Assembly (NCBI RefSeq): GCF_018350175.1
Contig: NC_058369.1
Location: 13,578,001-13,642,000 of the forward strand
Length of the DNA stretch: 64,000 bases
Source: Felis catus
Taxonomy: Eukaryota
Direction: 5' to 3'
Under the pieces are notes generated by a model. That model was not told the DNA's origin. It searched no databases and saw nothing but the letters and a program-made list of their open reading frames with translations. The translations under genes were made by a program, and so were the position numbers. This document shows positions 7,561 to 8,942 of the stretch, one piece after another (the first letter of the stretch is position 1; the number at the start of each line of letters is the position of its first letter).

Positions 7561-7857
7561 CGGAGCCAGAGGACACAGAGGTCCCGTCAGTGCTGGCTGA
7601 GGGCATGGAAGAGGGCTCTGGTCTCGAGCTGGGAGAAGTGGAGCTCCAATGCAAGGTCAAGGTGGGGGAGCTCGGGGGGCTCGAGTGGGAGGTAGGGGTA
7701 AGCTCTGAACCCGGGGAGCCAGAACTGGGGTGGGTGGCCGTTTCTGGTTGTGGGGAGGAGATGGGCTCCAACCCCGGATTTGTGGAGCTGGTGGGGGTTG
7801 CCCCTGAATTTGAGGAGTCGGGCTTTGAAATAGGGATGCGGACCTGGACGTTGGAGT
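7561..7857 (-). CDS. CIST1: CIST1 exon 2 (current form): Ser/Thr/Pro-rich mucin-like ectodomain
   Basis: Acceptor tctctttttaCAG| (7860-7858), donor G|GTGAGT at 7560; 297 nt, phase 1 to phase 1, open: [66 protein letters not shown]...GTSVSSGS. Confidence 0.72.
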
Positions 7858-7858
7858 C

Positions 7859-8263
7859 TGTAAAAAGAGAAACACGCCCAAAATGGAGTCACTTGTGCTA
7901 AGCCCCGTATCAACAAACCAAGACTTAATACCTAATCTAATCGCAGTTTCCGCCCCGCCCAGGAGTGGGACCTTTACCCCGTCAATCTGGAATTAGCTGG
8001 TCAGCACTTGTGAGATAATCTGTCTCCTAGATGCCCCTCCTCTGCTTTCTCGCAAAGGAAGGTAAACTTGCCTGAAACAATCCACTCTTTGCTGGGAACT
8101 GCCTTTCTCTTCCCCCCCCTTCTGCCTATAAAAGCCTTCTATTTTGTACAGCTCCCCGGAGCTCCTTTCTATCTGCTAAGATGGGACGCTGCCCAATTCA
8201 TGAATCATTAATAAAGCCGTTTAGGTCTTCGGATTTATTCCTGCCGAATTTTGCCTCTTAACA
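7859..8263 (+). mobile_element. Solo ERV1-class LTR (carnivore-type), antisense to CIST1
   Basis: Starts TG (7859) and ends CA (8263); 4-bp TSD AGTC at 7855-7858 and 8264-8267; internal TATAAAA at 8127-8133 and AATAAA at 8210-8215. A 4-bp TSD is typical of class I ERVs. Confidence 0.85.
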
Positions 8264-8368
8264 AGTCTGCCGCTACACTCGAGGTGCTGCCGTGGATAGT
8301 AGCGGCCGGTGGTTTCCACTGAGCTCGAGGAGCCGAAGCTGGGAAGCTCGGTTCTCCGTCCTGCTCGC
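8264..8368 (-). pseudogene. Stranded 5' part of ancestral CIST1 exon 2 (EQDGEPSFPASAPRAQWKPPAATIHGSTSSVAAD)
   Basis: Removing the LTR and one TSD joins ...GCA GAC T to CC AAC..., in frame with exon 2. It is preceded by a polypyrimidine tract ending in TG rather than AG (8370-8369). Confidence 0.65.
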
Positions 8369-8942
8369 CAAGAGCACGGAAAAAAAAAATAACACTGGAG
8401 GGAAAACTCACTGAGGGGGCAGGGAGGGGATGGTTAGGGACAAGGGGGTGTGGCCTCAGGCCCAGCCCCTCTCCGGAGGCCTCCCCGTTATCCCAGATGG
8501 TAAACACCTGCCTCTCGGGAGACCTGGAGGACTTGGCGAACCACGTGAGTGCTCCGTGGGAAGCGGGAGGCGCCCTTGTCTGAAGTTCTACAGCCAAAGT
8601 TACAGCCCGGGTGGGGCCCTCCCCGCCCCCACTCTTGCGTCGGGGCTCTGAAGGCCTCGGTATATAGGGAATGGCTGCAACCCANNNNNNNNNNNNNNNN
8701 NNNNNNNNNNNNNNNNNNNNNNNNNNNNNNNNNNNNNNNNNNNNNNNNNNNNNNNNNNNNNNNNNNNNNNNNNNNNNNNNNNNNNNNNNNNNNNNNNNNN
8801 NNNNNNNNNNNNNNNNNNNNNNNNNNNNNNNNNNNNNNNNNNNNNNNNNNNNNNNNNNNNNNNNNNNNNNNNNNNNNNNNNNNNNNNNNNNNNNNNNNNN
8901 NNNNNNNNNNNNNNNNNNNNNNNNNNNNNNNNNNNNNNNNNN

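Follow-up and report, generated by a model that had tools for sequence, protein, structure and literature searches.

A solo LTR in probable former coding sequence of cat CIST1 and the predicted splice acceptor that it forms with one base of its target-site duplication

In the cat (Felis catus), exon 2 of CIST1, the LOC729966 homologue, starts beside a retroviral LTR. How did this exon come by its present start, and what stood there before the insertion? The explanation that we favour, with moderate confidence, is that an antisense solo LTR lies in former coding sequence of exon 2, and that its A-rich start, together with one base of the target-site duplication, has provided the acceptor of the felid models, likely since an insertion in an ancestor that cats share with hyenas and mongooses. 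The LTR is known here from cat DNA alone, and the other species are compared through their protein models.

The window, which is the whole stretch of 64,000 nucleotides that was analysed, carries the gene on its minus strand, in the following exons.

10897..10987, minus strand: CIST1 coding exon 1 (signal peptide), 91 nt, phase 1, donor GTAAGA at 10896, matching XP_023103229.2
7561..7857, minus strand: present exon 2, Ser/Thr/Pro-rich stalk, 297 nt, phase 1 to phase 1, starting with the second 13-codon stalk unit (7858-7814)
5340..5500, minus strand: exon 3 (membrane anchor), with a TAG at 5363-5361, 21 nt short of the last junction, that truncates the cytoplasmic tail
5119..5242, minus strand: exon 4, which continues the old tail codons in frame past the stop and after them carries AATAAA at 5124-5119

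The 98 codons at 7855-7562 match the Felis catus protein XP_023103229.2 at 100%, and the 297-nt exon 7857-7561 reads open with the 91-nt exon 1. Exons 10987-10897, 7857-7561 and 5500-5340, joined by coordinates, give this protein exactly, with canonical donors and CAG acceptors. When 1.84 billion representatives were searched with a profile, 60 proteins came out, the top ones being the same carnivore clusters, and the profile matches the named CIST1 proteins of horse, cow, rat and human (E 7e-50 for human CIST1). Besides this similarity, the cat protein has the signal peptide, the Ser/Thr/Pro stalk and a membrane anchor marked by an 11-residue sequence that are expected of a CIST1 orthologue. 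The literature found on the gene gives no known function for it. The TAG in exon 3 is premature and removes about 22 residues of the cytoplasmic tail. A stop close to the last junction escapes nonsense-mediated decay (the 50-nt rule), so that the cat message, with its stop 21 nt away, is predicted to escape as well.

The insertion next to exon 2 has three parts.

7859..8263, plus strand: solo LTR, antisense to CIST1, 405 nt, TATAAA at 8127, AATAAA at 8210
8264..8267, no strand: target-site duplication, copy upstream in gene orientation, AGTC, preceded by host CA
7855..7858, no strand: target-site duplication, copy downstream in gene orientation, AGTC, giving the G of the acceptor AG and the first three exon bases

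By its anatomy, the 7859-8263 element is a solo LTR of an endogenous retrovirus, as the earlier note had said. It runs from TG to CA with an imperfect terminal inverted repeat, AGTC flanks it on both sides, and this pairing of TG..CA ends with a 4-bp duplication is unique among the 3600 edge combinations tried around both ends. On its plus strand, the TATA box precedes the polyadenylation signal. Since a 4-bp target-site duplication is typical of class I (ERV1), the element probably belongs to that class. No second copy of the LTR was found within the 64-kb window. An 18-nt motif from the LTR had no match among viral contigs and was not found in the literature, while its six matches among metagenome contigs extend over 18-21 nt only, which is chance length. 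The stretch 7561-8420 has 0.98 of its words present in 15 sequencing runs, and 10 runs from 5 studies are left after exclusion of 5 runs that were possible sources; the LTR-bearing stretch is therefore not an artefact of one assembly. Three RNA runs contain 0.86-0.95 of the words, including those of the LTR and of the piece upstream, where DNA carry-over and unspliced RNA are indistinguishable, and two further RNA runs contain 0.21 and 0.17. The observed/expected CpG ratio of the LTR is 0.58, which is unusable for dating because that of the flank is 0.97. The LTR retains its TATA and polyadenylation motifs (8127-8215, plus strand) and 12 CpG, and might drive a transcript antisense to CIST1; its minus strand has candidate donors, for example a GC-type site near 8071.

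The acceptor itself is a joint product of element and host.

7858..7872, minus strand: composite 3' splice site, T-rich tract and CA from the LTR 5' end, G from the duplication

Read on the minus strand, the CA of the LTR and the G of the duplication give CAG at 7860-7858, preceded by a 20-nt tract with 14 pyrimidines, 11 of them T, and no competing AG. When all AGs from 8472 to 7788 were scanned, a frame open with exon 1 as far as the donor at 7561 began only from those at 7859-7858 and 7805-7804. The junction of exon 1 with 7857 (ASR-D-SNV) occurs in the RefSeq models of 10 of 10 felid species, which are predictions and, being models of kin, are not independent; the count leaves out the ab initio model of Lynx pardinus, which starts further down. 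In the database models of cat CIST1, the predicted acceptor is thus the in-phase CAG that the earlier note had described, formed by the LTR end and one base of the duplication. The host site before the insertion, as preserved at the upstream copy of the duplication, is itself CAG/AC and in phase. In today's cat sequence without the LTR, this site would have 9 pyrimidines in 20, with 3 T and 3 competing AGs, and is a poor acceptor.

The sequence upstream of the LTR bears on what was lost.

8433..8437, minus strand: branch-point-like sequence CTAAC of the old 3' splice region
8411..8413, minus strand: intact CAG, 18 of 20 bases before it pyrimidines, branch motif 24 nt away, opening a 441-nt exon without the element
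8395..8397, minus strand: likeliest ancestral exon-2 acceptor, still CAG, placed by mapping of the bat intron end and the rhino exon-2 start
8268..8394, minus strand: the abandoned 127 nt at the 5' end of old exon 2, opening with a T run, the frame likely changed near 8337-8333 and again near 8308-8303

An ungapped comparison of outgroup peptide pieces, picked by eye, covered some 5800 positions within 5000-11300. One bat model, made ab initio and reading across the end of the intron, fits best at 8438-8391 (38/48, z 5.5), so that the bat acceptor corresponds to the cat CAG at 8397-8395. The rhino exon-2 start aligns without gaps from 8395 (41/63, tied second). Pieces from whale and musk deer fit best at 8365-8333, 8377-8333 and 8392-8333, all in one frame, while a second frame, at 8337-8308, is best for a bat piece and tied best for a whale piece. 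A third frame, that of the earlier note, is best or tied best at 8306-8262 for the 13-codon stalk unit of bat, whale and two artiodactyl-like proteins, and the next match of this unit is at 7858-7814, which places the LTR at the border of two tandem units. The scan placed neither of the rhino units nor the sloth and baiji pieces at the locus among the top 4 positions, and found only the second copy for the horse unit. In this low-complexity sequence, frameshift-aware free local alignment of the abandoned piece gave no significant score with 15 proteins (z -1.2 to 1.3), and nucleotide-profile alignment gave a summed score of 136.5, against 119.9 +/- 4.7 for shuffles, that was exceeded by 2 of 10 intron controls. 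Since the pieces were picked by eye and the two unanchored methods are not significant, the frame map is likely rather than proven. As judged from these matches, the LTR likely sits within former coding sequence of exon 2, and the bypassed piece 8394-8268 has likely changed frame twice, with the T run inside the old exon and the old acceptor intact. The abandoned piece (8264-8400) is unusually rich in CpG, with an observed/expected ratio of 0.97, in comparison with 0.30 in intron 1.

These placements alter the picture of the old exon given by the earlier note, in which a 399-nt exon began at 8368, its acceptor had since decayed to the TG at 8370-8369, and 34 codons had been lost. The insertion into coding sequence agrees with the scan, in which the 13 codons before the LTR are the best or tied-best position for the outgroup stalk unit. 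The 399-nt frame is indeed open once the element is removed, which is weak evidence because two of the three frames are stop-free up to the LTR; as an ancestral exon it is contradicted by the outgroup exon start at 8394 and by the two frame changes. No outgroup piece begins at the TG, and the CAG at 8397-8395 is intact, so that the idea of a decayed acceptor is abandoned. The loss is then about 127 nt (about 42 codons), now frameshifted, rather than 34 codons. The mucin stalk is indeed shorter, with 139 residues before the HR motif in cat and 175-192 in six non-carnivores, a shortening that the LTR may have caused. Without the element, an exon from 8394 would be 425 nt long, not a multiple of three and out of frame. 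The one from the CAG at 8413-8411 would be open at 441 nt, and an open message might have used this CAG right up to the insertion, although the openness is no evidence for it, for the same reason as above. Other intact AGs nearby are GAG at 8366-8364 and CAG at 8363-8361. The CCG at 8379-8377 was also considered as a decayed second acceptor and is a weaker candidate: pieces of both whale and musk deer can be placed from 8377 onwards, but in musk deer the match pairs one T run with another.

Every carnivore model examined is without the 5' part of exon 2, with 137 residues before the HR motif in meerkat and 145 in mink. Both of the meerkat models (D-STI) and the one hyena model (Y-SNAQ) begin exon 2 at the AC used by cats. 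The meerkat models use two donors, and the exon end of X1 maps to cat 10929-10888 (41/42); the second donor, at 10886 on the minus strand, is the one in use in a meerkat isoform. In the hyena, the piece before the junction maps to cat 9110-9090 (20/21) and ends on T, which gives Tyr with the AC. Two pieces of cat intron 1, 10418-10297 and 9176-9090 (minus strand), have counterparts in additional exons of the hyena model (best-codon matches of 69/75 and 53/57), which may be cryptic exons or prediction artefacts. Because the host site would by itself make a poor acceptor, the junction shared with meerkat and hyena is most simply explained by one old insertion. An LTR that predates the split between cats and the hyena and mongoose lineage, some 30-40 million years ago, is therefore favoured over an acceptor position older than the LTR, as far as the protein models go. 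Felid, meerkat, hyena and mustelid models are free of the LOW QUALITY label, which the wolf, jackal and fox models bear.

The same shared junction and the CAG of the host site could mean instead that this CAG was already a working feliform acceptor, and that a younger LTR of the cat family landed between its A and G and rebuilt the site by luck, with no coding loss from the insertion. Cats and tigers split about 10.8 million years ago, and ERV families younger than the felid root have solo LTRs of similar length, those of FcERV-gamma6 in cat being about 340-460 nt (PMC4643047, in the available part of supplement 8). The class I solo LTRs of FcERV-gamma6/ERV1-1_FCa in felids are likened to the present one by length only (same source, in part). 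Such a history requires an insertion at one exact base, and the flank before the insertion would have been a poor acceptor. We take CIST1 to fall between 10.98 and 18.11 Mb of NC_018724.1. In 30 of the 41 rows for that sequence in the FcERV-gamma6 list, no solo LTR lies within this assumed interval (PMC4643047). A younger LTR on an acceptor already at work is distinctly improbable.

Caniforms appear to have reached a similar end by another way. For the extra N-terminal residues of mustelid models, the best position is the opening 36-39 nt of cat intron 1 (z 4.3-4.6), which ranks fourth for the wolf piece, and past these residues the mustelid models continue with sequence that aligns to the last DS of the bat. 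GAG 8326-8324 was accordingly rejected as a carnivore acceptor. Apparently, to judge by these alignments, the mustelid and canid models have an extended exon 1 and an exon 2 starting at the equivalent GCAG/AC one 13-codon repeat later, so that a shift of this kind can arise without this LTR. In cat itself, the start of intron 1 (10896-10859, minus strand) matches the extra N-terminal residues of otter and badger models, and weakly those of wolf. Felid, hyena and mustelid models stop at GVSEF, while canid models end in GVSKS or are flagged low quality. Taken together, the protein models suggest that the 5' stalk and the tail of CIST1 have likely been remodelled across Carnivora.

This wider remodelling raises the thought that the 5' part was broken in the carnivore ancestor, that weak internal GCAG/AC sites came into use, and that the LTR later strengthened one of them, which would make it the repair of an older defect. 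The absence of the 5' part from all carnivore models examined (cat, meerkat and mink have 137-145 residues ahead of the HR motif) and the tail stop common to felids, hyena and mustelids point this way, as do two inferred frame changes despite an intact acceptor and a host CAG older than the insertion. However, caniforms use another repeat unit and an extended exon 1, which fits independent events such as deletion, and frameshifts are expected after abandonment too. We consider repair of an older defect unlikely, though it deserves serious weight. Its strongest form, that CIST1 was frameshifted and nearly dead in the carnivore ancestor and that the LTR, by landing at a weak internal CAG, gave the cat, hyena and mongoose branch an open message again while donating only the tract, the G coming from the insertion scar, is rather more doubtful. 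If it were true, an A-rich LTR start read backwards, a CA end and a duplication that begins with G would be a general, searchable route by which LTRs re-cut coding exons.

It could also be that cat CIST1 is decaying or dead, the junction being the choice of a predictor or splicing noise and the LTR a neutral passenger. The tail has been lost and the stalk shortened, the LOW QUALITY label is carried by the wolf, jackal and fox models, the hyena model is stitched together from intron pieces, and no bear, seal or panda protein is among the named matches of the profile search. Yet the felid models keep signal peptide, stalk and anchor open and agree in them to 90-98%, two or three isoforms that share the junction are modelled in several species, and the cat message is predicted to escape decay. 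A dying gene is likewise distinctly improbable. Under the favoured explanation, and equally under those of an older defect or of a younger LTR, the LTR supplies the acceptor at present annotated in cat.

An isoform that skips exon 3 and has no membrane anchor (7561 to 5242, minus strand) is present among the models of lynx, clouded leopard, jaguar, leopard cat, Geoffroy's cat and jaguarundi. Similar anchorless ends occur in wolf, rhino and other models, and a secreted form is possible.

In the history that we favour, the retrovirus would have integrated at the host GCAG/AC, at the border of two 39-nt stalk repeats, and would then have recombined to a solo LTR. The start of its U3, read backwards, would offer a clean T-rich tract, strengthening the weak host CAG. 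With the element in place, exons from the old acceptors are 834-850 nt long and run into stops of the LTR; exon definition may have favoured the 297-nt exon over them, and their messages would be degraded owing to these stops, so that the short exon could take over. The old acceptor, being under no need to decay, would remain AG, while the bypassed 127 nt would drift and gain frameshifts. The loss was likely tolerated, stalk length being, it seems, loosely constrained in CIST1, because mustelid and canid models have lost the same part and most carnivore models have also lost the cytoplasmic tail.

Splice sites derived from transposons are known in mammalian genes, both by exonization and as alternative 3' splice sites, and LTR cases have been counted (PMC2394776, the accessible part). 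As in those cases, an antisense element gives the pyrimidine tract and the acceptor. The cases in the accessible part of PMC2394776 are mostly cassette exons or exons lengthened into the element, with exonic insertions in UTRs, whereas in CIST1 no base of the element is in the predicted mRNA and the exon is shortened at its 5' end. Introners and other transposon-derived introns may take a splice site from the target-site duplication (PMC11282704, in part), and as in them, the duplication here completes the acceptor and the element leaves with the intron. Introners, to the extent covered by that part of PMC11282704, are mostly DNA transposons that supply the donor too and make a new intron without codon loss. 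In CIST1, by contrast, the far end of the element has no donor in use, intron 1 has absorbed the element, the exon is shorter by about 127 nt, and no felid model keeps codons upstream of the element. The resemblance to an introner is one-sided.

Antisense solitary LTRs in introns carry splice signals, and the LTR in CIST1 resembles them in its usable acceptor signals (PMC1794541, in part). The available sections of PMC1794541 treat such sites as disruptive or suppressed, while the site in CIST1 is the annotated main acceptor of a coding exon. The death and resurrection of IRGM with an ERV9 insertion (PMC2644816, from an excerpt) is likewise a case of an ERV insertion that reshapes the splicing of a damaged gene, and serves as the model for the repair of an older defect. 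It differs, according to the same excerpt, in that the promoter changed and the frame was restored, and prior death of CIST1 is only an alternative reading. A literature search, with subscription papers and bioRxiv supplements outside its reach, found no published account of this locus or of an exact case.

An acceptor made of an LTR and a duplication base is a neat variation on a known process. Should reads and outgroup DNA bear it out, this would be a clean example of a retroviral insertion, old and fixed, that hit a coding exon, moved only the exon start and left no viral base in the message. Splice sites of this make, half LTR end and half duplication, could be sought simply across the genome by looking for LTR ends that fall on annotated acceptors. 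Its biological weight is limited, CIST1 being little studied and its stalk and tail looking loosely constrained in carnivores.

Upstream of CIST1 on the minus strand, the stretch at about 11520-11420 resembles by eye the coding stretch at about 13225-13130 of a long frame and has the look of a local duplicate that has degenerated; in the models of ermine and raccoon dog, sequence similar to it is translated as an N-terminal extension. The long frame itself, 23589-11878 on the minus strand, is stop-free over 3904 codons. From 15600 onwards it contains about 65 copies of a 39-nt repeat, its end bears IQ-like motifs, and we take it to be IQCN/KIAA1683. Two further minus-strand frames, at about 32400-31657, beside four assembly gaps, and at about 51600-51400, presumably belong to JUND and to an exon of LSM4, respectively, as which they read.
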